NCBI GenBank assembly: GCA_001803205.1
Contig: MHBE01000031.1
Location: 15,238 to 79,237 of the forward strand
DNA: 64,000 bases
DNA from: Lentisphaerae bacterium GWF2_38_69
GTDB lineage: Bacteria; Verrucomicrobiota; Lentisphaeria; Victivallales; GWF2-38-69
Reading direction: 5' to 3'
Shown: piece after piece, positions 38,853 through 50,391 of the stretch
How positions within the stretch are numbered: position 1 is the stretch's first letter
How the letters are laid out: the number at the start of each line of letters is the position of its first letter
Translations under genes and position numbers: made by a program
The notes under the pieces: model-generated
Seen by the model: the letters and a program-made list of their open reading frames with translations, nothing else
What the model was told of the DNA's origin: nothing
The model's database searches: none

Positions 38853-39527
38853 ATGTTTTTTAATTTTAAACAGAGTTGGAAGATGATGGATGCAAAAAAT
38901 TACAGCGCAGAAGAGGAACGGATTAATTTTCTTACTCATGCTTTCGGAAGCATTCTGAGCATATTCGGCTTCATAAACTTCTTTGTCGTAGGTTATGGAA
39001 AAGGCAATCTGAAAGACTTTATCGGATTGCTTGTTTTTGGAATATCACTTTTTCTGCTCTATTTTTTTTCTGCTCTTTATCACTTTGTTAAGAAGCCTGA
39101 AACCAAACAGTTTTTCAGGAAACTGGATCATTCGGCAATTTTTATTCTTATAGCAGGCAGCTACACGCCTCTCATGCTAATGACCCTTCATCCGGCTTTG
39201 GGAGTTTCCATGATAATAATTTGCTGGATTCTTGCGGCAGTTGGGATTCTTTCTGAGTTCTATCCTATCTTTAAATCAAGAAAGTGGGCGATTGTCCTAT
39301 ATCTGGTGATGGGCTGGATGGCAGTATTTGTGATAAAACCAATTATAGAAAGTGTTTCCCTTCTAAACCTGGTTCTTATTGTCGCAGGAGGCGTAATTTA
39401 TACCTTGGGAGTTATTTTTTATGTAAGACGGAAAATGTATCACAATCATGGCATCTGGCACTTTTTTGTTCTGGGAGGAAGCATCTGCCATTATTTTGCA
39501 TTTCTTGGAATTTTCATAAATGGCTGA
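38853..39527 (+). CDS. Hemolysin III / PAQR-family membrane protein
   Basis: 7-TM protein with SALYH...LDHSAIF...HFFVLGGS motifs. The start may be one of the downstream Met codons (MMDAK...). Confidence 0.85.
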   Translation: MFFNFKQSWKMMDAKNYSAEEERINFLTHAFGSILSIFGFINFFVVGYGKGNLKDFIGLLVFGISLFLLYFFSALYHFVKKPETKQFFRKLDHSAIFILIAGSYTPLMLMTLHPALGVSMIIICWILAAVGILSEFYPIFKSRKWAIVLYLVMGWMAVFVIKPIIESVSLLNLVLIVAGGVIYTLGVIFYVRRKMYHNHGIWHFFVLGGSICHYFAFLGIFING

Positions 39528-39916: not shown

Positions 39917-42715
39917 TCAATCTTCCAAATACATTATGTCCTGGATATAGAAAGAATCAGGATGAGTCTCGTCATACTTTACACGGGCAAGAATTTTTTG
40001 AGAGGATGTAACTTCATCTGCGTTAATATCAAATCTTCCTTTTTTTACATTAACTTCCTGATTGCTCTTGTAAATGCTGGCAGTACCCTCATCAGGACCT
40101 ATGTCCTTAAGCGTTTGGCCAACAGCTATTATCGTATATAAATCAGGAGTTTCAACTTTCGTCAGATTAATAAATTTTCCAATTAACTCTTCTTTTGAGG
40201 CATCGGTAGTTTGTCCTGACTGTGTGGTAAGTTCAGAAACCTCATTTACAATTTGAGCCCTTGTGACGAAAGGACTTCCTCCCGTGGTTCCGTTCTGATC
40301 GAGAACTTCTTGGGCTATGGTATTGGCAGTAGAGACAGAAATAGCTGAACCTCCGCTGGCAGGATCATTGCCTGTACTGCTTTTTATATTACTTCCAATT
40401 TTTATCTGATCAAATAGTGTTCTTAAGACTGAAACATTATCTGAATTCAAATTTATTTTCCCTAGAGTGGCAGAATTTGAGGTCATTTTTACCTGGTCAA
40501 GAATATTTGCATCGCCCAGGATGTATGTGCCTCCTCCCGCGCTAGGGCCAAAACCGTTTCCATCAGCTGCCTCATTGTATTTTTTCAGGTTTAGCGTCTG
40601 GAAGGCTTTTGCTCTGTGTATAAATCCCAGTTCCCACGGCGATTTCATAGGAGCATTGCGGATGAAGGCTGTGGAAATACCCGTAGGATCCGTAGCTGTT
40701 TCAAGATCGTAGGTAGTGCCATTAAAAATTGACCTGGCTAAAGTGTAGGAAGTGTTCACTGAACCTATTGTGGCGTTAGCTGCTGTCTGGCTTGAAGTCT
40801 GATTAAGGTTAGCAGTGGAAGTCCCAGGCGTGCTGATCCAATCTTCCTGTTTTAGATTCTGCCTCGGGTCTTTTACCTGATAGTCTAAGGTTATGTATGC
40901 TGTATTAGTAGTATTGCTAGTACCGTTAACAGTAAAGAATGGAGTTTCAGGAGTAACGAGCATCGTAGGCATTTCTGAATAGTCGTAAAGTGTATTGCCA
41001 TCAGTGCTCATCAGTTTTATCTTCAAACTTTTAACAGTTACAGCCATTTTTATTCTGAGAGTTTTGACATTATTTACATTAATATTTGTCCCTTTGGTCT
41101 TTGTATCATTCAGACCAACTTGAAGCGGCGTTGCAGGAGAGATAGAATAATAGGTTTTTGAGCTAATAGAAGGAGTGTCGAATGAGACGGTAGTAGTGTC
41201 TGTTCCGGAAGTTCCAAACATATAAGTTGAAGTTCCGTACCAGAATTGATATGAGAAATCAGGTTCTACATAAATTTTGTAGACCCTTGAGTTAATTCCG
41301 TCATAGAGATTGACAAGCTCTACAGTTAGAGTGGGTGTAACATCGAAGTCGTATGTATATGGACTTGTCGATGTCCTCTTAATGACTGCTTTAAATTGAA
41401 TCATTACTTCGTTTATATACGGAACTTTTTCCAGGCCAAGATAGCCGGGGACAGATGGTGAATCAGTAGTAGGAATATCGTCAATATCGCAGTAATCAAT
41501 AAGATTTGCTATGATCTGGGGTTTTGTAGAATTAGGATCGTTCCACTCTATCAACCATTGTAAATAGTTCTGAGAATTTTTTGCAGCATTACCTATGGCA
41601 TTAACAGCAACTCCATTTGGATCCTGGCTAGATAAGGTATCCCAGTCCGTTCTGGAAAGGTTAAACCTTTCTTGCATTTCGCCTTGTTCTTTTATCAAAT
41701 CTTTATTTTCATCGATCCAGTATTTTTCATCATCAGGAGTGGAATTAACATAAAAAACCTTCTTAAAGTATTCTCTTATTGAGTCATTGTCCTGAGTTAT
41801 TCCGAGTGTACTGAAAAGCTGTTCATAATCTTCCCAGTCCCCAGCGCTGCCAGTATCCACCAATCCAGCCTGACTGCAGGTATTTACGCTCATTTTTGTA
41901 GGGTATTCTGCAGCAGGGGGGAAAGAATCCGCATCGTATTCTAAGCTCATAAGGCATAATTCATTAATATCCCTTCCAGGTCTGCCTGAGACATATGAAC
42001 CATCCGATGCTACAGAGCTATTGCCCCCACCGTAATTATCTTCAGAAGGAGGATTTTTATTGTATTCGGATGCATTATACCCTGAATCTATGACTGCCCA
42101 GGGATCTATTTTTCCTTTATCAGGGAGAACCACATAGGCAATTCTGCCAAAAATTTGTGTATCCGTATAGGTCTGATGCTGAGGGCTTTTAATATAAACC
42201 CAGGACAGAGCGGAAGTATCGCTAATATCGTAAGCTGTGTTAGACGGATAATCTACTGGAATCTCAAGATAAGTGATGCCATTGATTACAGTTGTAAGCT
42301 GTGATGCAAGATCATCTCCAAGAATAGCTCTTTTCTCGGCATCGGTCAGGGATGCGTCATTAGCGATATCTGCATCATGGCTTACAATTTCATTCATATT
42401 CTCCTGTGGGTCAGTAGACTTGTATTTCATATTAGCCATTGCCCTGTTAAAGGCTGTTTGAGCTAGAGCCCTGGCTATATTTATATCCTGAAAGTTGACT
42501 GCAGATTTCCTTTCAATCATGGAAGTTGTGACAAACGCTATCCCAACCATCAGAAGAAGCGCTGAAATACCGATGGCAAGAATTGTTGCCATTCCAGAGT
42601 TGTGGTTAGGGGATAGGGGACTGGGATTGGGGGAATGGGATTGTGTTTTGCGATTCATGAAAAAGAAAAAGCGAATTGTAGATTTTAGATTGCTGATTTT
42701 AGATTTCAAATTCAT
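39917..42715 (-). CDS. Giant GspK/PilX-like minor pseudopilin (arm 1)
   Basis: Leader ending ...NHNSG, then MATILAIGISALLLMVGIAFVTTS (GspK-type hydrophobic N-terminus with no Glu+5). GspK-like IIANLIDYCDIDD...YLGLEKVPYINE and ELGFIHRAKAF blocks. Paralogue of 47584..49740. 932 aa. Confidence 0.65.
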   Translation of the reverse strand: MNLKSKISNLKSTIRFFFFMNRKTQSHSPNPSPLSPNHNSGMATILAIGISALLLMVGIAFVTTSMIERKSAVNFQDINIARALAQTAFNRAMANMKYKSTDPQENMNEIVSHDADIANDASLTDAEKRAILGDDLASQLTTVINGITYLEIPVDYPSNTAYDISDTSALSWVYIKSPQHQTYTDTQIFGRIAYVVLPDKGKIDPWAVIDSGYNASEYNKNPPSEDNYGGGNSSVASDGSYVSGRPGRDINELCLMSLEYDADSFPPAAEYPTKMSVNTCSQAGLVDTGSAGDWEDYEQLFSTLGITQDNDSIREYFKKVFYVNSTPDDEKYWIDENKDLIKEQGEMQERFNLSRTDWDTLSSQDPNGVAVNAIGNAAKNSQNYLQWLIEWNDPNSTKPQIIANLIDYCDIDDIPTTDSPSVPGYLGLEKVPYINEVMIQFKAVIKRTSTSPYTYDFDVTPTLTVELVNLYDGINSRVYKIYVEPDFSYQFWYGTSTYMFGTSGTDTTTVSFDTPSISSKTYYSISPATPLQVGLNDTKTKGTNINVNNVKTLRIKMAVTVKSLKIKLMSTDGNTLYDYSEMPTMLVTPETPFFTVNGTSNTTNTAYITLDYQVKDPRQNLKQEDWISTPGTSTANLNQTSSQTAANATIGSVNTSYTLARSIFNGTTYDLETATDPTGISTAFIRNAPMKSPWELGFIHRAKAFQTLNLKKYNEAADGNGFGPSAGGGTYILGDANILDQVKMTSNSATLGKINLNSDNVSVLRTLFDQIKIGSNIKSSTGNDPASGGSAISVSTANTIAQEVLDQNGTTGGSPFVTRAQIVNEVSELTTQSGQTTDASKEELIGKFINLTKVETPDLYTIIAVGQTLKDIGPDEGTASIYKSNQEVNVKKGRFDINADEVTSSQKILARVKYDETHPDSFYIQDIMYLED

Positions 42716-42740
42716 AAAACAGTTAATAGTTGTCAGTTGC
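42671..42740 (-). repeat. 70-nt heptamer-periodic element spanning the arm-1 K-gene start codon
   Basis: Minus strand reads GCAACTG ACAACTA TTAACTG TTTTATG AATTTGA AATCTAA AATCAGC AATCTAA AATCTAC AATTCGC. 58/70 positions are identical to 47559..47628 by hand alignment. Confidence 0.8.
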
Positions 42741-42859
42741 TAGGTGATAGAATTATAATATGAAAAACTCTTTTTAAAACAAGGAACTACACAAAACAAC
42801 AATACTTTAACATAAAACCCAACACTCAAAATTTAACATTTGCCTTGCTCTCATTCTTC

Positions 42860-43723
42860 CTACTGCCCTCTGTCTCCGAGCAATACTGTCCTTGTAAAAG
42901 TAAGTTGCTTCGCTTCACGAAAATCCCTGGCTATTTCAGGCTCACCGGTATATTCAGGAGCGTGATATACGGTTGAACCGCATAGAGAAATCCATTTGTC
43001 CCATGAAGATTTATCCAATAGAGTCAGGTTAATAGTTACAGTTGTAGGGAATTGCGAAGCAGAGCAGGCGTTATTAGCTTTGGAGGTGGTCTGATCCGGC
43101 GGCAATACGCTGTTTGCGTCTGAATCGGTATCGCAAACAAAAGATACATCCAGCACATTCGGGATTAAATTCCGGTAATCCTGGGAAGAAGTCGAATTGG
43201 CGGTTAATGAAGCAGTAGGAACAGCCTCTGTCGTGTACCCTACTGTCAAGTTGTTCTGCCAGTTCCATCTTGTGTCAGTTTCGTCTTCATCTGTTATATT
43301 TCCAGTAATGCTTCTTCTTAGCCAGCCTTCATGCTCATCATTGTGATTAGCCGCATAATATAATTGGTACTTCAGTTCATATTTATTGGAAGTGCAATTG
43401 TTATTAGGCGGAATAGGAGAATAGGTGACAAACGCAAGAAGCTCATTGCTGAATTCATTCCAGTTAGCTCCCGGGGACATTTTTGCATGATGCCAGAAAG
43501 GGGCACTGGAATCTTCAGTCTTATATATTGCAGACTCCAAATCCCGTGTCATCAAATCTATGGCAATTCTTGCGTTTTCAAAAACCTCCTGCCTGGCATT
43601 TGTGATCGCCCAGGTATTCTGGTAGGATGAAAATAAAGTAAACGATACCGTTATGAGCAGTGACAGAATTGCCATGGACATAACAAGTTCAGTAAGTGTA
43701 AATAATGAAATTCTGCGAAGCAT
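42860..43723 (-). CDS. GspJ/PilW-like minor pseudopilin (arm 1)
   Basis: Class III signal-peptide core LFTLTELVMSMAILSLL, then QEVFENARIAIDLMTRDLESA, a GspJ-type helix. Paralogue of 46646..47491 (shared KYQLYYAA, SSQDY..LIP, FR....TF.R.V..G.RGQ). Confidence 0.7.
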   Translation of the reverse strand: MLRRISLFTLTELVMSMAILSLLITVSFTLFSSYQNTWAITNARQEVFENARIAIDLMTRDLESAIYKTEDSSAPFWHHAKMSPGANWNEFSNELLAFVTYSPIPPNNNCTSNKYELKYQLYYAANHNDEHEGWLRRSITGNITDEDETDTRWNWQNNLTVGYTTEAVPTASLTANSTSSQDYRNLIPNVLDVSFVCDTDSDANSVLPPDQTTSKANNACSASQFPTTVTINLTLLDKSSWDKWISLCGSTVYHAPEYTGEPEIARDFREAKQLTFTRTVLLGDRGQ

Positions 43724-43772
43724 TATAAAATTTTAAATATAGCACTCTGGATATCTCCAGAATGGTATTAAT

Positions 43773-45296
43773 TTATTTACTTATTTCTGACATATTATAG
43801 TATTCATTGTAAAATCTTAACTTTTGCCTCTTGCTGTAGTCCATCTGAGAGAGAGGCCAGCTGAGTTCGGCATTGACGCCTATTCCAGTTGAAATATTAC
43901 TGCTGCTGTCTGGATTTGGGGTAGGAGTTACTATCGGATCTGTTGTTCCATCATCTATAGAACCAATTGAAGGCAGTATCTGAATCTGCCATTGACCCAT
44001 TCCAGAATTATTTTTCCAGATTTTAACACTCAGGGCATTTGCGGTCTTTGAATTTATTTTTATATTTTTGCCATCAATTATTATATCTTGATTACCAACA
44101 TTTAATGTGGCATTGTCTCCATTCTTGGTTTTCATCTTCAGAGTATTGGCAGAAAATGTTTTGGAGTTTGGTGCTATATATTGAGCTTCATCTGGGTTAT
44201 TTCCTTTACTGATATTTTTCATCATATTTCTGTCCAGAATGACGCCCGTATCTGAACTTAATTCAAAAGCATAATCATTGTTAGTAGGTGAGATTCCAAT
44301 TCCCGTTACTGAAGTTTTTATTGAATCTGTTGGAACAGGATCAATATTGGTCAATATTACCAAATCCTGGTAGTCTTTGACAATACCATCAACATCAAAA
44401 AGATATATTATCTGGTCATTGGCGATGGCAATATTCTCTCCGTCATCATCCAGATATGGCTGAACTAAAGTCGCATTGGATTTCTGTCCATAATAGGGAG
44501 CATCAGTAGGTAGTGGAGACCCATTTTTTAAAGTATGAACCTTGCTTGTGTTTGTAGATAGCGATGAATAAGAAGTCCCTCCAAGGGTACCATAAGCTTC
44601 GCTGACAAAAGTTGTTCCAGCTGGAAGATTAGAGAGGTCAAATTCTCCTGAAGTACTTTCTACCGGAACATTTTGACCAAAAGGATATATTGTGTATTCA
44701 TTTTTGCCAGGTTCTTTAATTTTAACTCTAAAATATACATTATCTGGCCATTCAGAACCTATTGCTTTGAATTTGACATTTGCGTTAGATGTATTTGTAA
44801 CAGTTCCGCTTGTTATATTAAAAGCAGAAGGCTCTTCCGGAGGTGCTTGAGCAGTTCCAGGTTTCTTCAGTATATTTGAATTCATGCCAGGTGGAATGCT
44901 CTGCCAGACAACAAGCTGCGCTGAATAGTCTTCAGTGCTGGAGGTTGATTTGGATATTATATAGACACCGGGAACATTGGTGTCATAAATATCTGTAGAC
45001 ACCTTGTCTTGTTTTACTGCTTCTGTAATAACTGGCTGAGCTGAATTGTTCTGAGAAAAAAGATCACTGTATTCCGGGAGATCTGCCAAAGCACTGAAGT
45101 CCTTCTCTGAGAGATTCGCAAAGTAAGCCTTGGCATCTCCAGTAAAAATTCCTGCATAGTTCTCTCCAATAGCGTCTTTCTTTTCTTTAATTCCTGTTGG
45201 CATTAAAGTTACTACAGCAGTAGCCCCTATAGCAAGTATACCAACAGCAATTGCTACTTCCACCAGGGTAAAGAGTTTTATATTCAATGTCTTCAT
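43773..45296 (-). CDS. Oversized GspI/PilV-like minor pseudopilin (arm 1)
   Basis: N-terminus MKTLNIKLFTLVEVAIAVGILAIGATAVVTLMPTGIKEKKDA. The C-terminal GIGVNAELSWPL...RFYNEYY is shared with 45584..46645. 507 aa. SD gagg upstream. Confidence 0.55.
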   Translation of the reverse strand: MKTLNIKLFTLVEVAIAVGILAIGATAVVTLMPTGIKEKKDAIGENYAGIFTGDAKAYFANLSEKDFSALADLPEYSDLFSQNNSAQPVITEAVKQDKVSTDIYDTNVPGVYIISKSTSSTEDYSAQLVVWQSIPPGMNSNILKKPGTAQAPPEEPSAFNITSGTVTNTSNANVKFKAIGSEWPDNVYFRVKIKEPGKNEYTIYPFGQNVPVESTSGEFDLSNLPAGTTFVSEAYGTLGGTSYSSLSTNTSKVHTLKNGSPLPTDAPYYGQKSNATLVQPYLDDDGENIAIANDQIIYLFDVDGIVKDYQDLVILTNIDPVPTDSIKTSVTGIGISPTNNDYAFELSSDTGVILDRNMMKNISKGNNPDEAQYIAPNSKTFSANTLKMKTKNGDNATLNVGNQDIIIDGKNIKINSKTANALSVKIWKNNSGMGQWQIQILPSIGSIDDGTTDPIVTPTPNPDSSSNISTGIGVNAELSWPLSQMDYSKRQKLRFYNEYYNMSEISK

Positions 45297-45583: not shown

Positions 45584-46645
45584 ATGAGATTGTTAAAATA
45601 TTTTTCACTTATAGAAATGACATTGGGCATATCGATACTTGTCGTAGGTGCCACATCTGCATTGTCATTAATACCTGTGGGAATTAAAGACTCTAATGAA
45701 TCCACCGGTAAAAATTATGCATCTGTCTCCAGCCAGAGTATATACTCATACATATTAGGGCAGGCAGAAAGGTCTGCAGCCAGTTTTTCTGACCTCAAAA
45801 ATAGTATTCCTACCGAGTATCCGACTAATTCGCTTGCTTATGATGATTCATTTACCTCATTAGGCAATAATATTTACCAATCAGGCAATATTTATGCAGT
45901 TAAATATTATACAGGCAACCGTTTGGACTTTAATGCCGAAGTCAAAATATGGCAAACGCCTGTTTATTACACCTATAGGAATCTCAATGGCACCAATGTC
46001 CCTTCTTTTTCAGGCGTTACTGATGCGCAAATTAGCGATCCAGAACCGGATCCGACCCCAGCCCCTGATCTTGTAATTACTAATACAAGAGATGCTACAT
46101 TTAATTTCCTGATTTATTTAAAAACTCTTGATGGAACACCGTCATGGTCACAATTAAGCTTGACAACTTCGGACACTTCCACTTACTTTATTCCTGCAAA
46201 TGCTCAAACTTATGACAATGTGACAAGTGTCTCTTATAAATTTGACCCGGGATCAGGATTTACCTATGGAGGCTCTACATATGGTACTATGGTTTTGAAT
46301 AGCACAGAACCAATTGAAATGGATACAGGTAATAACGGTTTTACTTATTTTCCAAATTCTAGTGATTGGGGTATTTTTCTGATTTATTTGGGATTTATGC
46401 CTCCAGATTGGAGCGGCGCTTCGCTTTCTCTATATGTAAATAATAACGGACCTGGACTAGGAACAGGCTATAATCCCCCTGCGCAAGTGGTTTATAGCGG
46501 CAATGGAAACATATACGATAAATCGTTATATTCTGAAAGCCCAGGAACAGGTATAGGAATCAATGTAGAAGTCAGCTGGCCTATTGAAAAGGTTTATGAG
46601 CAAAGACTCAAATACAAATATTATTTTGAAGTTTATAAACCGTAA
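45584..46645 (+). CDS. Oversized GspI/PilV-like minor pseudopilin (arm 2)
   Basis: MRLLKYFSLIEMTLGISILVVGATSALSLIPVGIKDSNES and C-terminal GIGINVEVSWPI...KYYFEVY. Paralogue of 43773..45296. 353 aa. Confidence 0.55.
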   Translation: MRLLKYFSLIEMTLGISILVVGATSALSLIPVGIKDSNESTGKNYASVSSQSIYSYILGQAERSAASFSDLKNSIPTEYPTNSLAYDDSFTSLGNNIYQSGNIYAVKYYTGNRLDFNAEVKIWQTPVYYTYRNLNGTNVPSFSGVTDAQISDPEPDPTPAPDLVITNTRDATFNFLIYLKTLDGTPSWSQLSLTTSDTSTYFIPANAQTYDNVTSVSYKFDPGSGFTYGGSTYGTMVLNSTEPIEMDTGNNGFTYFPNSSDWGIFLIYLGFMPPDWSGASLSLYVNNNGPGLGTGYNPPAQVVYSGNGNIYDKSLYSESPGTGIGINVEVSWPIEKVYEQRLKYKYYFEVYKP

Positions 46646-47491
46646 ATGGATATTCGCAGCCGCTTGAAAATTAGATACTTTTCTTTAATTGAACTTATTG
46701 CTGCCATGTCGATCTTCATTTTGTTTCTAACTGTTGCTTTTCAATTTGTCTCCACTACTCAAAATGCGATTAGCATCTCAGGAAAAAGAAGGGGGCTTAC
46801 TGAAGACGCCAGAATTGCGCTGGATATAATTGCAAGGGATCTCCAGAACTCATATTACGGTAACGAATCTGGTAATTATGCTCAATTTTGGCATTGGGGA
46901 CAAGATGAAAATGGAACTCCATTGAGGCCATCTGCCTGGGGCGAATACAGAAATGAGCTAATAGCTTTTATTTCCAATACGCCTATTCCTCCTGAAGACT
47001 GTACTTCAAAGCTTTGTGAAGTAAAATATCAGCTTTATTATGCCGCTTCTCATGACTCTAATGAAGGTTGGCTTATCAGAAGCGTCACTGGTGATATTGA
47101 TGGAGCGAAATGGAATTTTAAAGATAATCTAGAGGCTGGCTATAGTTCTTCAGCTTCAGCTTTTAGTGCTGACAACGCTTCATCCCAGGACTACCAGAAA
47201 TTAATTCCTCATGTCGTTGATTTAAGGTTTGATTGTTATGATATTGACGGAGACACAATTCGTGCGGATGATAATGTAACCACATCAGCCAGAGATATTC
47301 CTCCCGGTTCGTTCCCTTATTTAGTAAATATCACAATTACTCTTATGGATGATGAATCCTGGATGAAATGGAAAGAACTTTCAGGAACAGCTCCGTATCC
47401 TGATGATTCGGGGGCAGCCAAAACATTCAGAGAGAATAATCAGCAGACTTTCGTAAGAGCTGTTCACATAGGCAACAGGGGACAAAATTGA
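46646..47491 (+). CDS. GspJ/PilW-like minor pseudopilin (arm 2)
   Basis: MDIRSRLKIRYFSLIELIAAMSIFILFL...EDARIALDIIARDLQNS. Starts immediately after the stop codon of the I-like gene. Confidence 0.7.
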   Translation: MDIRSRLKIRYFSLIELIAAMSIFILFLTVAFQFVSTTQNAISISGKRRGLTEDARIALDIIARDLQNSYYGNESGNYAQFWHWGQDENGTPLRPSAWGEYRNELIAFISNTPIPPEDCTSKLCEVKYQLYYAASHDSNEGWLIRSVTGDIDGAKWNFKDNLEAGYSSSASAFSADNASSQDYQKLIPHVVDLRFDCYDIDGDTIRADDNVTTSARDIPPGSFPYLVNITITLMDDESWMKWKELSGTAPYPDDSGAAKTFRENNQQTFVRAVHIGNRGQN

Positions 47492-47558
47492 GAATGAAGG
47501 AAAGTGTTCAGTTTTGAGTGTTGAGTTTTGAGTTAAAGCATTATAATTATATCAGTTA

Positions 47559-47628
47559 ACAACTGATAACTATCAACTGTTCTATGAATTTAAAATTTAA
47601 AATCTGCAATCTGAAATCTGTAATCCGT
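47559..47628 (+). repeat. 70-nt heptamer-periodic element spanning the arm-2 K-gene start codon
   Basis: ACAACTG ATAACTA TCAACTG TTCTATG AATTTAA AATTTAA AATCTGC AATCTGA AATCTGT AATCCGT. Confidence 0.8.
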
Positions 47629-49740
47629 CTTTCCCTATCCCCGAACCGCGAGCCACGAACCACGAGTTACGAATCAGGTATTTCCACAATAATAGCCATC
47701 GGAATTACCACTATGCTTCTGGGTATTGCCGTGGCCTTTGTCTCGACTTCAATTATAGAAAAAAAAGCCACTTCTAACAATATGGACATAAACACTGCTA
47801 GATTCATGGCTTATGCCGCGTATCAACGGGCAAAAGAGTCAATCATCAATTCGAACGCACTTTATCAGGATATTTATCCTGTTGATACAAGCAGGAATTT
47901 AGATGACGAAGAAAGAGCTGACCTTATAGCAAATTTGGAAACAGTCATTACCAGTAGTGAAACTACCGATACATACATTGTAACAGACACAGGTATTACA
48001 TGGTCTTATCAGCAATCTACTGATAATGAGCCAAATAGATGGCTGAGCCGCCTCTCGTATGCCGCAATGGCAGATCCTGATACTCCCGAAGCTAAAGAAG
48101 CATTCTGGATCCCGTCTTCAGCCTCTGATACTACAATAGATGATTCAGAACTCTACCACAGATTCGACCTTATGAATTATACATGGGATGAGGCTACTGT
48201 AACTTCATTTTTGGGGGGAGATACTATCAATTTTGATGACAATCCTGGTGCTACAACATCAACTGTTATTCCCTGGTTGAAAAACTGGGAAGATTTCGGG
48301 GATATGGGAAGCGCAACTGCAGCCAGAAACCAGATTATTGCTAATTTAATTGATTATTGTGACTCAGATAGTGCTGCTACGACTGACTATGATGGCGTAA
48401 CCTCGCCAACATATGTAGGCCTTGAAAAATGTCCTTATATAAATGAAATAGTGTTAAAATGCTATGTTTATGTGTCCTATGTGGGATCTTCAAGCGGTGG
48501 GCCAGGATTCAGATTGCGTCTTTATGTGACTCCTTCTGTCGAACAGGTAAATTTGTATGATGAATCAGCTTCTCAAAAAGTCGAAGTTGATGTGACTGCT
48601 ATGTATACAATAACTTTCTCTTGGTATAGTGGTTCCTGGCCCACTTGCGAAGAAAGTCTTGCAGCGACCTCGCCTGATACTACTGTTACAACAAATTCTA
48701 AAAGCTATAGCGCATCAACTATGGAAGAATTTTATGGAGCGACAGTTAGTTCAGTATCTGACAATATTTTTTTTCAGGTATCAAGCTTTAGAATTACAAA
48801 TATCACAGTTAAGCTATTTGACTCCAGTAATAATTTGCAGGATTATTCCATAGTTTTAGATTCGCCAGTGACATGTGATGAAGCAAATGTTTCTGGAGGT
48901 TTTGGACATTCTGCTACATCACCTGTGTTTTTTCTCAGATATGAAGCAAATGACTCTCGACAGAATTTGCTCTCAAACGACTGGACATATTCTACTACAG
49001 ATTCTTCTTTAGGTTCTGACAACTCAAATTTTAATCCAAATCCCGGAGGAGACACAGATGCAGAACCAACCGCAACTCATCCCTGGGAAATTTCCACTGC
49101 TTATATTGCCGATACCAATATGCAGTCGGCAGCAGAACTTGGATATATTCACAGGGCTAAAGCATTTCAGACTATCAATCTTAAGACATTCAATGATACT
49201 GAAGGGTTGCTAGATACCGCAGGGGGAAATGCCTATGCTGACGGAGATGCCAATATCCTGGATCAGGTTAAACTAGACACTGATATTTCTCGAAACGAAT
49301 ATATCAATCTTAACTCTAGGGACAGATATCTTTTTTCCTCATTAACTGAACTCTATGGAGAAGGAATATCGACAGAAACGGCTGTTAGCGCTTTAAATAT
49401 TGCCAGACCCTTGGCTCTTTATCAGTCAAGAGCATCCATTCTTGCAAATTCAGATTTGGCAGATGTGCCTTTGGAACTTTCATCAATTCTTTATCCTGTC
49501 CAGGAAACTGACACGGAAAGGGAACAAGTTATAGGTGATGTGATAACAGGTTGTGAAGCGATGAATCAATCCTATTTCATAATTGGATTAGGGGAATCTT
49601 TCAGAGATGTAGTTAATTATAAGCAGTACGATGCAGATATTGATATCGTTTCTTCCTCTCAGAAAGTCCTCACCAAAATGCAGAAAACAATAGGATCTGA
49701 TTCTAGCAAGGTAGTAGAATTCCAGTATCTATCAGATTAA
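47584..49740 (+). CDS. Giant GspK/PilX-like minor pseudopilin (arm 2)
   Basis: Leader MNLKFKICNLKSVIR...SYESG, then ISTIIAIGITTMLLGIAVAFVSTS. IIANLIDYCDSDS...YVGLEKCPYINE and ELGYIHRAKAF blocks. 718 aa. Confidence 0.65.
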   Translation: MNLKFKICNLKSVIRLSLSPNREPRTTSYESGISTIIAIGITTMLLGIAVAFVSTSIIEKKATSNNMDINTARFMAYAAYQRAKESIINSNALYQDIYPVDTSRNLDDEERADLIANLETVITSSETTDTYIVTDTGITWSYQQSTDNEPNRWLSRLSYAAMADPDTPEAKEAFWIPSSASDTTIDDSELYHRFDLMNYTWDEATVTSFLGGDTINFDDNPGATTSTVIPWLKNWEDFGDMGSATAARNQIIANLIDYCDSDSAATTDYDGVTSPTYVGLEKCPYINEIVLKCYVYVSYVGSSSGGPGFRLRLYVTPSVEQVNLYDESASQKVEVDVTAMYTITFSWYSGSWPTCEESLAATSPDTTVTTNSKSYSASTMEEFYGATVSSVSDNIFFQVSSFRITNITVKLFDSSNNLQDYSIVLDSPVTCDEANVSGGFGHSATSPVFFLRYEANDSRQNLLSNDWTYSTTDSSLGSDNSNFNPNPGGDTDAEPTATHPWEISTAYIADTNMQSAAELGYIHRAKAFQTINLKTFNDTEGLLDTAGGNAYADGDANILDQVKLDTDISRNEYINLNSRDRYLFSSLTELYGEGISTETAVSALNIARPLALYQSRASILANSDLADVPLELSSILYPVQETDTEREQVIGDVITGCEAMNQSYFIIGLGESFRDVVNYKQYDADIDIVSSSQKVLTKMQKTIGSDSSKVVEFQYLSD

Positions 49741-49764: not shown

Positions 49765-50391
49765 GTGCTTAAAATTGAAAAAATTGGACAAGTAAAGTCA
49801 CTATTGAAAGTGACTTTTGACAATGGCTCATCCTTGCTGTTCTTGCCTGATATCGTATATGGAAGAAGCCTTAAAGAAGGAAATTCATACGAAGAATCAG
49901 TAATAAATGCCTTGATTGCGCAAAACGATGAAAGCCTCTGTTTTCAATCTTTGCTGAAGATTCTGAAAACAAGGATGCACTCGACCGGAGAACTAAGACG
50001 AAAACTTGCAGCTAAAAAGTTTAACTTTTCCTTAATTGAACACGCTATACAAAAAGCTTTGGAGACAGGAGTTACCAGGGACGAGAATGCTGCTGAGTGC
50101 TATAAAAACGAACTTTCTGCTAAAGGCTACGGCTCTTTCAGGATCAGGGACGCGATGAGAAGGAAAGGCTTCTCTGAAGATATAATTGATAATTTTATCA
50201 CAACAGATACTTCTGCTTCTGATGAGGAAAACGAAAATGCTAAAAGGATATTCGAGAAAAAGCTCGCATCTCTTAAAAAAGATAAATCGCTTCTTAAGCA
50301 TAAACTAAGAGAGAAACTTTTTCGGTTCATGCAAAGTAAAGGGTATTCTTCGGAAACTATTTTATCTCTAATAAAGGACTTTTCTGATTAG
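49765..50391 (+). CDS. recX: RecX-like regulatory protein
   Basis: 208 aa with a GTG start. Three-helix-repeat pattern (...SLCFQSLLKILKTRMHSTGELRRKL...GYGSFRIRDAMRRKGF...LFRFMQSKGYS) typical of RecX. Confidence 0.7.
   Translation: MLKIEKIGQVKSLLKVTFDNGSSLLFLPDIVYGRSLKEGNSYEESVINALIAQNDESLCFQSLLKILKTRMHSTGELRRKLAAKKFNFSLIEHAIQKALETGVTRDENAAECYKNELSAKGYGSFRIRDAMRRKGFSEDIIDNFITTDTSASDEENENAKRIFEKKLASLKKDKSLLKHKLREKLFRFMQSKGYSSETILSLIKDFSD

Follow-up and report, generated by a model that had tools for sequence, protein, structure and literature searches.

The short heptanucleotide repeats of cyanobacteria, known as STRR, are said to have been described by Mazel et al. in 1990. In Nostoc, expression of recF and recO is affected by contiguous heptamer repeats that lie close to start codons or promoters (bioRxiv 10.1101/2022.06.06.494920). 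TAACTGA direct repeats occur in marine Beggiatoaceae, Cyanobacteria and some Bacteroidetes (MacGregor, 2015, PMC4679880). These lie a few nucleotides upstream of start codons, over the expected ribosome-binding site, and have no predicted structure; translational regulation through S1, Csp or CsrA-like proteins was proposed, with no test (PMC4679880). The heptanucleotide repeats of hmw1A and hmw2A in Haemophilus influenzae act by copy-number change, through transcription and the 5′ untranslated region (PMC8262952, PMC12721329). Here we describe a heptamer-built element of ~98 nt, the core cassette, in a 64,000-nt stretch of Lentisphaerae bacterium GWF2_38_69 (contig C31:15238-79237 of the source genome G000, a draft of 3.12 Mb with 37.6% G+C). 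This whole stretch is called the window, and positions given without a contig name follow its numbering. Between 39.9 and 49.7 kb lie two divergently transcribed triads of pseudopilin-like genes, arm 1 on the minus and arm 2 on the plus strand, whose genes are named H, J and K by position. In each arm a copy of the cassette covers the start codon of K. We read the shared sequence as a cis-acting start-region cassette that would control K expression, and we hold this reading with roughly even confidence.

The two copies in the window are as follows.
42663-42761, minus strand: core cassette of arm 1, from the three-way alignment; 97.4 bits with the core model; 86% identical to the orthologue in the sister species (G002) and 81% to arm 2.
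47540-47636, plus strand: core cassette of arm 2, with the K2 ATG at 47584 and the unit order and number of arm 1; 94.6 bits with the core model.

The entire shared stretch is 7-nt periodic, a feature that the earlier note on this DNA missed. Tandem Repeats Finder (TRF) places period-7 arrays at 42675-42706, 47503-47534, 47587-47625 and 47642-47665, and the units are imperfect (72-88% matches). On the gene strand, an invariant motif, ATTATAAT(T)nTATCA with its -10-like palindrome, lies 5′ of the heptamers. Three CAACTGA-like units (CAACTGA/TAACTAT/CAACTGT) precede the K ATG, and the final one stops 3-4 nt before it in all three copies, those of the two arms and of G002. The ATG itself (42715-42713 in arm 1) sits within a TGAATTT unit and is followed by five AAATCTN heptamers, which translate as the first ~17 residues of a long prepilin leader. 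The number, order and individual variants of the units are the same in the three copies; in every copy, for example, GCAATC takes the third place in the AAATCTN run. The G content of the core is 7-10%. None of the three copies has GGAG, GAGG or AGGA upstream of the K ATG, and a Shine-Dalgarno (SD) type motif is present in ~38% of genes genome-wide.

By these features the cassette is best described as belonging to the STRR/TAACTGA class of heptamer repeats, for which Lentisphaerota would be a new phylum. Like the TAACTGA repeats, it consists of forward 7-nt direct repeats that end a few nucleotides before a start codon, at the position of the ribosome-binding site; canonical SD motifs and predicted RNA structure are missing, and arrays are dispersed over many unrelated genes. 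The pre-ATG units are near matches, each differing from TAACTGA by 1-2 bases. However, strict TAACTGA arrays are not dominant in G000: strict triple repeats of this type form no dominant class, and many unit types coexist. Besides its occurrence in Lentisphaerota, the K cassette also differs in running past the ATG into translated leader codons and in being a fixed composite of unlike units that is kept between species and paralogues, which is evidence of selection that the published work lacked. With the cyanobacterial STRR and contiguous heptamer repeats the arrays share their short tandem form, the presence of several unit types, their scatter in non-coding DNA and their frequent position next to start codons or promoters. 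For the cyanobacterial repeats, effects on how the downstream gene is transcribed or translated have been reported. The K cassette differs from them in phylum and units, and in that it covers the start codon and supplies codons for part of a leader predicted to be cleaved.

The arm junctions were compared with MAFFT, aligning the reverse complement of 42560-42900 to 47450-47720. All three shared blocks that had been noted at the J-K junctions were recovered. For the block across the K start, where 58/70 identities had been counted by hand, the best 70-column window across the ATG has 60/70, and blastn aligns the J-K spacer and K start of the arms with 69/80 identities (86%). The motif ATTATAATT.TATCA is found in both arms. 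The claim that the junction is better kept than the flanking coding DNA also stood, as identity in a 60-nt sliding window over the J-spacer-K alignment has its maximum, 83%, precisely at the spacer and the start of K, and the second-best window has 72%. Protein identity between the arms is 25% for H, 42% for J and about 31% for K. In the same order, the codon-aligned nucleotide sequences agree at 44%, 56% and 49% and the four-fold degenerate sites at 39%, 38% and 31%, where base composition predicts 29%. Within the window each sub-block occurs in the two arms only (0 expected by shuffling), and blastn found no third copy of the 80-nt block in the G000 genome. The shared J-K sequence is thereby confirmed as real and well beyond chance. 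The two arms alone are insufficient for a claim of selection, as a recent copy or gene conversion would look alike.

A third copy lies in G002, one of two further genomes of the genus, the other being the complete genome G001. A TRF pass over related loci exposed an AAATCTA array after a J gene on G002 contig JBAXXY010000194 (C194). This locus is the orthologue of arm 1, to which its H is 45%, its J 48% and the N-terminal part of its K 61% identical; the remainder of the G002 K is on contig C204, and the mature region of K shows 67-68% identity. The J-K spacer of G002 carries the core cassette. Over 98-99 nt, identity of the core reaches 86% for arm 1 and G002, 81% for the two arms and 78% for G002 and arm 2 (with 32% identity expected, P is about 1e-21 to 1e-28). 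Four-fold sites of H, J and K are identical at 32%, 32% and 31% between arm 1 and G002 and are thus saturated. Windows on the cassette are 83-90% identical in this comparison, the H-J spacer 60% and the region upstream of H 50%. As a control, 15 other G000 arrays were compared with their flanks to G002 and G001; the flanking genes match, but most of the arrays find no match at the orthologous site. Since the core is kept while sibling arrays, spacers and four-fold sites diverge, we conclude that it is under purifying selection. The earlier note had argued that selection acts on the nucleotide sequence of all the blocks. This holds for the ~98-nt core, with its 86% identity in G002 against 31-32% at four-fold sites, but not for the block next to the J stop codon (block 1).

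A recent gene-conversion patch without selection was dropped as a sufficient explanation on finding the G002 orthologue. More broadly, the shared stretch could be a matter of history only, that is, young selfish or neutral heptamer DNA that was copied between the arms by gene conversion or template switching, has no function and has not yet decayed. Such an origin would fit a stretch held in common by non-sister paralogous arms, one block of which is missing in G002, and an inverted orientation at 4.7 kb favours intrachromosomal exchange. Heptamer arrays are abundant and turn over fast, and in a leader that is cut off any sequence is tolerated; a heptamer-coded leader of 30 aa is present in another Victivallales prepilin. 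Yet the orthologous site has retained the core in a species whose four-fold sites are saturated, and as a full explanation this account is thereby largely refuted. Between these two genomes, other arrays and spacers are not kept. As arm 1 resembles G002 more than it does arm 2, the copy into arm 2 is not recent, and copying accounts for the acquisition by arm 2 but not for the persistence of the cassette. We therefore consider history alone quite unlikely.

What selection acts on can be narrowed further. In the K frame, codon differences within the core comprise 11 synonymous and 29 non-synonymous changes, and no other frame is better, which indicates that the peptide is not what is selected. 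A conserved small open reading frame (ORF) in another frame or on the other strand was rejected, because the other frames have stops or an excess of non-synonymous changes. Folding gave no significant structure. The long leaders of the two arms have z-scores of 0.0 and +1.5, the three cores +1.1, -0.5 and -1.3. For the cores the minimum free energies are -3.2, -6.7 and -11.9 kcal/mol, and start windows of the genome average -12.0, so that the tract is weakly structured relative to genomic start regions in two of the three copies. Arm 2 has a 7-bp hairpin that neither arm 1 nor G002 shares, and an Rfam search gave no match at E <= 1. The suggested attenuator role is thus not borne out. A hairpin or palindromic element was also rejected, there being no inverted array pair and no significant fold. 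A search of the G000 genome for a complementary RNA partner acting in trans yielded chance-level AT-rich matches only.

Repeat number is not the selected property either, since the same units stand in the same order in all three copies. This argues against a slipped-strand contingency locus, in which gain or loss of 7 nt would shift the K frame or the promoter spacing and so switch K on or off. In favour of the idea, the heptamers lie in the 5′ part of the coding sequence of a gene for a surface filament, 7 is not a multiple of 3, and phase variation by heptanucleotide simple sequence repeats is known (PMC8262952, PMC12721329). The likeness to hmw1A and hmw2A, where such repeats also lie in the 5′ region of a surface-structure gene, ends there, as those repeats are perfect and variable in number while the K cassette units are imperfect and invariant in number. 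Three long-diverged copies agree in unit number, order and variant, and all three leaders are in frame. We regard such a switch as extremely unlikely.

The K frame is the sole open frame through the three leaders, whose lengths of 123, 96 and 60 nt all keep it. The leaders of the two arms are encoded as follows.
42593-42715, minus strand: K1 leader codons, 41 aa, with NSG as the last residues ahead of the hydrophobic helix; a CCCAATC/CCCCTAT array peculiar to this arm forms the 3′ part (TRF 42610-42643).
47584-47679, plus strand: K2 leader codons, 32 aa, with ESG as the last residues; a CGAACCA array peculiar to this arm forms the 3′ part (47642-47665).

SG directly precedes the hydrophobic helix in all three (...NSG|MATILAIG, ...ESG|ISTIIAIG and ...ESG|MATILAIG), and in K2 there is no alternative ATG, GTG or TTG start before the helix. 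The cassette ATG is thus very probably used as the K start. The genome encodes a prepilin peptidase (Peptidase_A24 gene at C53:4912-5265, 57 bits, above cut-off). With glycine at -1, a hydrophobic helix and this peptidase, the K leader has the features of a cleavable prepilin-type leader and is predicted to be one. In its glycine directly before the hydrophobic N-terminal helix it resembles the leaders of type IV prepilins and minor pseudopilins of type II secretion systems. Usual prepilin leaders have 6-25 aa. Those of K have 20-41 aa and are largely low-complexity translations of heptamer DNA.

A cassette controlling K expression could work as follows. The core would have been built from 7-nt direct repeats of the kind that fill many spacers, and this instance would have become fixed and been kept by purifying selection on the DNA or RNA. 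The G-poor, unstructured tract without an SD motif may then serve as a landing or binding platform, so that initiation of K could be controlled separately from the upstream J gene. Candidate binders are the ribosome or S1, or a regulator, protein or RNA, that reads the repeats. The ATTATAAT motif may add an internal promoter, and the leader encoded by the AAATCTN units would later be cleaved off. That a factor binds, whether control is exerted on translation or on transcription, and that arm 2 received a copy are matters of inference. "RNA leader" and "operator", two roles for which the sequence had been put forward as a candidate, still give the best reading.

Several observations weigh against such a start-region cassette. 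The arm-1 orthologue in G001 (L047) has a plain J-K spacer of 37 nt and an 11-aa leader, without the cassette. Three copies from two species are too few for covariation or per-position constraint. Constraint specific to the heptamer register was looked for and rejected, as the variable columns spread evenly over the register (n=3, low power). The G002 core is not unusually unstructured (-11.9 kcal/mol). No good forward -35 lies at a constant distance from the palindrome (15, 18 and 19 nt by eye), and the best sigma-70 matches are on the strand opposite to K. Lastly, ~85% conservation over 98 nt exceeds the normal need of a ribosome landing pad and points to a specific binder. In a stronger form, the cassette would be the docking site of a dedicated factor that reads the RNA or DNA in 7-nt register and gates initiation of the tip pseudopilin K. 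On the sequence evidence we regard this form as unlikely.

The sigma-70-like sites on the opposite strand are these.
42730-42759, plus strand: site antisense to K1 and J1, TTGTCA-18-TATAAT, 11/12, a consensus match only.
47540-47569, minus strand: site antisense to K2 and J2, TTATCA-18-TATAAT, 10/12.

G002 has TTGTCG-18-TATAAT at the aligned site. The ATTATAAT palindrome reads as a -10 on both strands, but a -35 at constant distance (18 nt) exists on the antisense strand only. The element might accordingly work as DNA, as an antisense sigma-70 promoter (TTGTCA/TTGTCG/TTATCA-18-TATAAT) that fires into J and H, with the AAATCTN tract as its A/T-rich upstream or activator-binding region; the operon would then be under antisense control. 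The two sites are the best promoter-like matches of the 5.5-kb region, they share their aligned position between the arms, and the 18-nt spacing is invariant. However, promoter-like matches are no commoner in this AT-rich DNA than in shuffles (22 vs 18.2 +/- 5.2). The -35 hexamer is among the less conserved parts of the core and differs in all three copies, and the side that would be transcribed is not common to arm 2. An antisense promoter would also leave unexplained why the element contains the K reading frame and ATG, and we consider it doubtful.

The earlier note had also proposed a recombination substrate. Two inverted repeats of ~98 nt with 81% identity bracket H1-J1 and H2-J2, and they could be the crossover sites of a shufflon-like invertible segment whose inversion swaps the H-J pair joined to each K. 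Gene order in the family is indeed fluid (H-J-K and H-K-J); the order H-K-J is found in the related triads L046 (G001) and L049 and L050 (G003). But no recombinase was found among 20 neighbours (10 ORFs at 28.5-39.9 kb, all six pseudopilin-like genes of the arms, and a further four genes on the downstream side as far as 55.4 kb), and G002 has a single copy that is still conserved, which speaks against the proposal. H1, J1 and K1 have their closest relatives together at a single locus of G001, which gives no hint of swapping, and 81% identity makes a poor substrate for homologous recombination. We judge such inversion very unlikely.

Outside the core, the shared stretch includes block 1, and arm 1 has an extra segment.
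42805-42859, minus strand: block 1 of arm 1, a purine-rich stretch after the J1 stop, then a GTTTTGAG-type heptamer array; outside the conserved core.
47492-47538, plus strand: block 1 of arm 2, a purine-rich stretch after the J2 stop, then a GTTTTGAG heptamer array (TRF 47503-47534).
42762-42804, minus strand: arm-1 segment of ~43 nt, missing from arm 2 and kept in G002; the 60-nt windows that cover it are 83-88% identical.

Block 1 lies directly 3′ of the J stops and has 38 matches in 55 columns between the arms. Its array is 89% identical between the arms over 27 nt and 96% identical over 29 nt to an unrelated array at C18:3803-3831 (blastn). As it matches unrelated arrays at least as well as the other arm, there is no evidence of locus-specific conservation. 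Block 1 is absent from the G002 orthologue, and arrays of its GTTTTGAG-type unit are found on many contigs and in each of the 10 family genomes. It is thus a generic heptamer array rather than the conserved locus-specific element that it had been taken for. We rejected the view that the entire shared stretch is generic repeat DNA, which is true of block 1 only; the core has three full copies in 251 genomes. The extra insert of ~45 nt reported for arm 1 is present, as ~40-45 nt between blocks 1 and 2, but its conservation in G002 makes it ancestral to the arm-1 lineage and not an insertion. The purine-rich stretch after each J stop (47494-47517, and 42836-42854 on the minus strand) contains an ATG. 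In arm 2 this reads ATGAAGGAAAGTG (M-K-E-S-...), like the short leaders (MKNENG, MSKLINEKG) of cassette-less K genes, and could be what is left of an original K start that insertion of the repeat tract displaced.

The core sequence model found three full copies among 251 Victivallales genomes (94-99 bits). All else scored at most 32 bits, and these lower matches are generic AAATCTN-type arrays before assorted genes. An exact-pattern scan of 185,579 species genomes gave no match, with a pattern strict enough to miss G002, in which two of the specified bases differ. A metagenome scan with a profile of the K1 orthologues recovered the G002 population only, as two contigs identical to G002 in the cassette. 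In the K tree, K1, the K of G002-C194 and the cassette-less K of G001-L047 form one clade (100/99). K2 falls outside a clade (98/98) that includes, besides these, the cassette-less K genes of G003 and G002-C135. Arms 1 and 2 are therefore not sister paralogues, a point that had been missed. In the simplest and most likely history that we infer, the cassette was gained in the arm-1 lineage after the G001 split and then copied into arm 2.

Two of the lower matches of the core model are notable. At G002:C120:7290-7330 (L098) lies a stretch of 40 nt that nearly copies the 3′ half of the cassette in G002 (AATCTAAAATCAGCAATCTAAAATCTAAAATTTGGATTT), with three mismatches counted by eye. An ORF that starts MAIYELEQRILFDGAAAV, an N-terminus typical of giant adhesin-like proteins, follows 7 nt downstream of its end; there is no orthologue in G000. 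In another Victivallales family (L082, G051:C23, ~1496-1600) CAATTGC and AAATCGG arrays encode the 30-aa leader of a prepilin-type gene (...KFTLIELLVVIAIIAIL). At L079 (G052) an array precedes another prepilin ATG by ~20 nt.

Heptamer arrays are common in the G000 genome, which has 91 arrays of period 7 with at least three copies, as against 20, 21 and 35 for periods 6, 8 and 9. After merging, 50/133 arrays are intergenic and 27/133 lie at ORF ends, in a genome of which ORFs cover 89%. Genome-wide, the arrays show no preference for start over stop codons (27 vs 23 within 15 nt). Such arrays were found in all 10 genomes of the family. Long TTTTCAA/TTTTCCA arrays lie at many G000 contig ends, several with the insert GAGTGAGAGAAGGGAGAATAATGG (C4:168-425, C27:198-288, C40:85-414, C13:31649-31750, C52:67348-67485, C24:26920-27024, C51:69705-69798), and they probably break the assembly. 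A dispersed repeat of ~70 nt with an internal hairpin (...GTAAAAAGC...TTTTTATTGCATGCTTTTTAC...) is flanked by TAACGGT/TAACAGT-type heptamers at G000 C13:8179-8290, C51:2487-2560, C38:13274-13370 and C47:13700-13816 and at G002:C8:1851-1928. The G000 loci and the G002 locus are 79-89% identical. The repeat may be a small mobile or REP-like (repetitive extragenic palindrome) element that carries heptamer arrays.

The genes of the two arms are as follows.
39917-42715, minus strand: K1, K-like giant minor pseudopilin, 932 aa; orthologues at G001 L047 and G002 C194+C204.
42860-43723, minus strand: J1, J-like pseudopilin, 287 aa; weak N-terminal matches to GspJ and Verru_Chthon cassette C, below cut-off.
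43773-45296, minus strand: H1, first pseudopilin-like gene of arm 1, 507 aa.
45584-46645, plus strand: H2, first pseudopilin-like gene of arm 2, 353 aa.
46646-47491, plus strand: J2, J-like pseudopilin, 281 aa.
47584-49740, plus strand: K2, K-like protein, 718 aa; long branch, without a close orthologue.

The H and J proteins resemble Verru_Chthon cassette proteins B and C (TIGR02598/TIGR02599) and GspJ at their N-termini, far below cut-off. For J the family models score 54.5 bits (TIGR02599, cut-off 256.5) and 20.1 bits (gspJ, cut-off 64.85), and for H 24 bits (TIGR02598, cut-off 51.4); K has no match in Pfam or NCBIfam. A second divergent pair of H-J-K triads lies outside the window at C32:41771-50803 of G000. 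There J and K are contiguous or overlap, the SDs are of GAGG type and the K leaders have 9-11 aa, without the heptamer cassette. The J and K trees disagree on partners (K4 groups with the K of G001-L046, J4 with J1 and L047), which suggests that modules were shuffled between triad loci.

The arm-1 H-J spacer has a 9-bp hairpin followed by a T-rich run (43743-43764, minus strand, -13.7 kcal/mol), flagged as terminator-like. The spacer of the G002 orthologue has an 11-bp hairpin (L064 ~2229-2256, -17.3 kcal/mol) of unrelated stem sequence at the equivalent position; position and structure are kept but the sequence is not. Such a hairpin may set the H:J:K ratio, either as an attenuating terminator or as a stabiliser. 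In arm 2 no spacer separates H from J. The genes flanking the double-arm locus, RecX (49765-50391) and the gene at 38853-39527, are 235 kb apart in G001, and neither adjoins a pseudopilin locus there. The position of the whole locus is thus not conserved, and a synteny-based search for orthologues was of no use.

Taken together, these results bear on a class of DNA that has been catalogued for decades. Heptanucleotide direct repeats are known from cyanobacteria, giant sulfur bacteria and Bacteroidetes, with no clear evidence for the function of any single tract. A composite tract that lies exactly on a start codon and is ~80-86% kept across a species split and between old paralogues is direct evolutionary evidence for a selected cis-element, in a compact object of ~98 nt that is amenable to experiment. 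It also shows repeat DNA absorbed into a gene, as the cleaved prepilin leader tolerates being encoded by repeats. If the cassette were indeed the docking site of a dedicated factor, it would be the first STRR-like tract shown by conservation to be a selected cis-regulatory element, and the half-cassette at G002:C120 would mark a small post-transcriptional regulon of surface structures in Victivallales.

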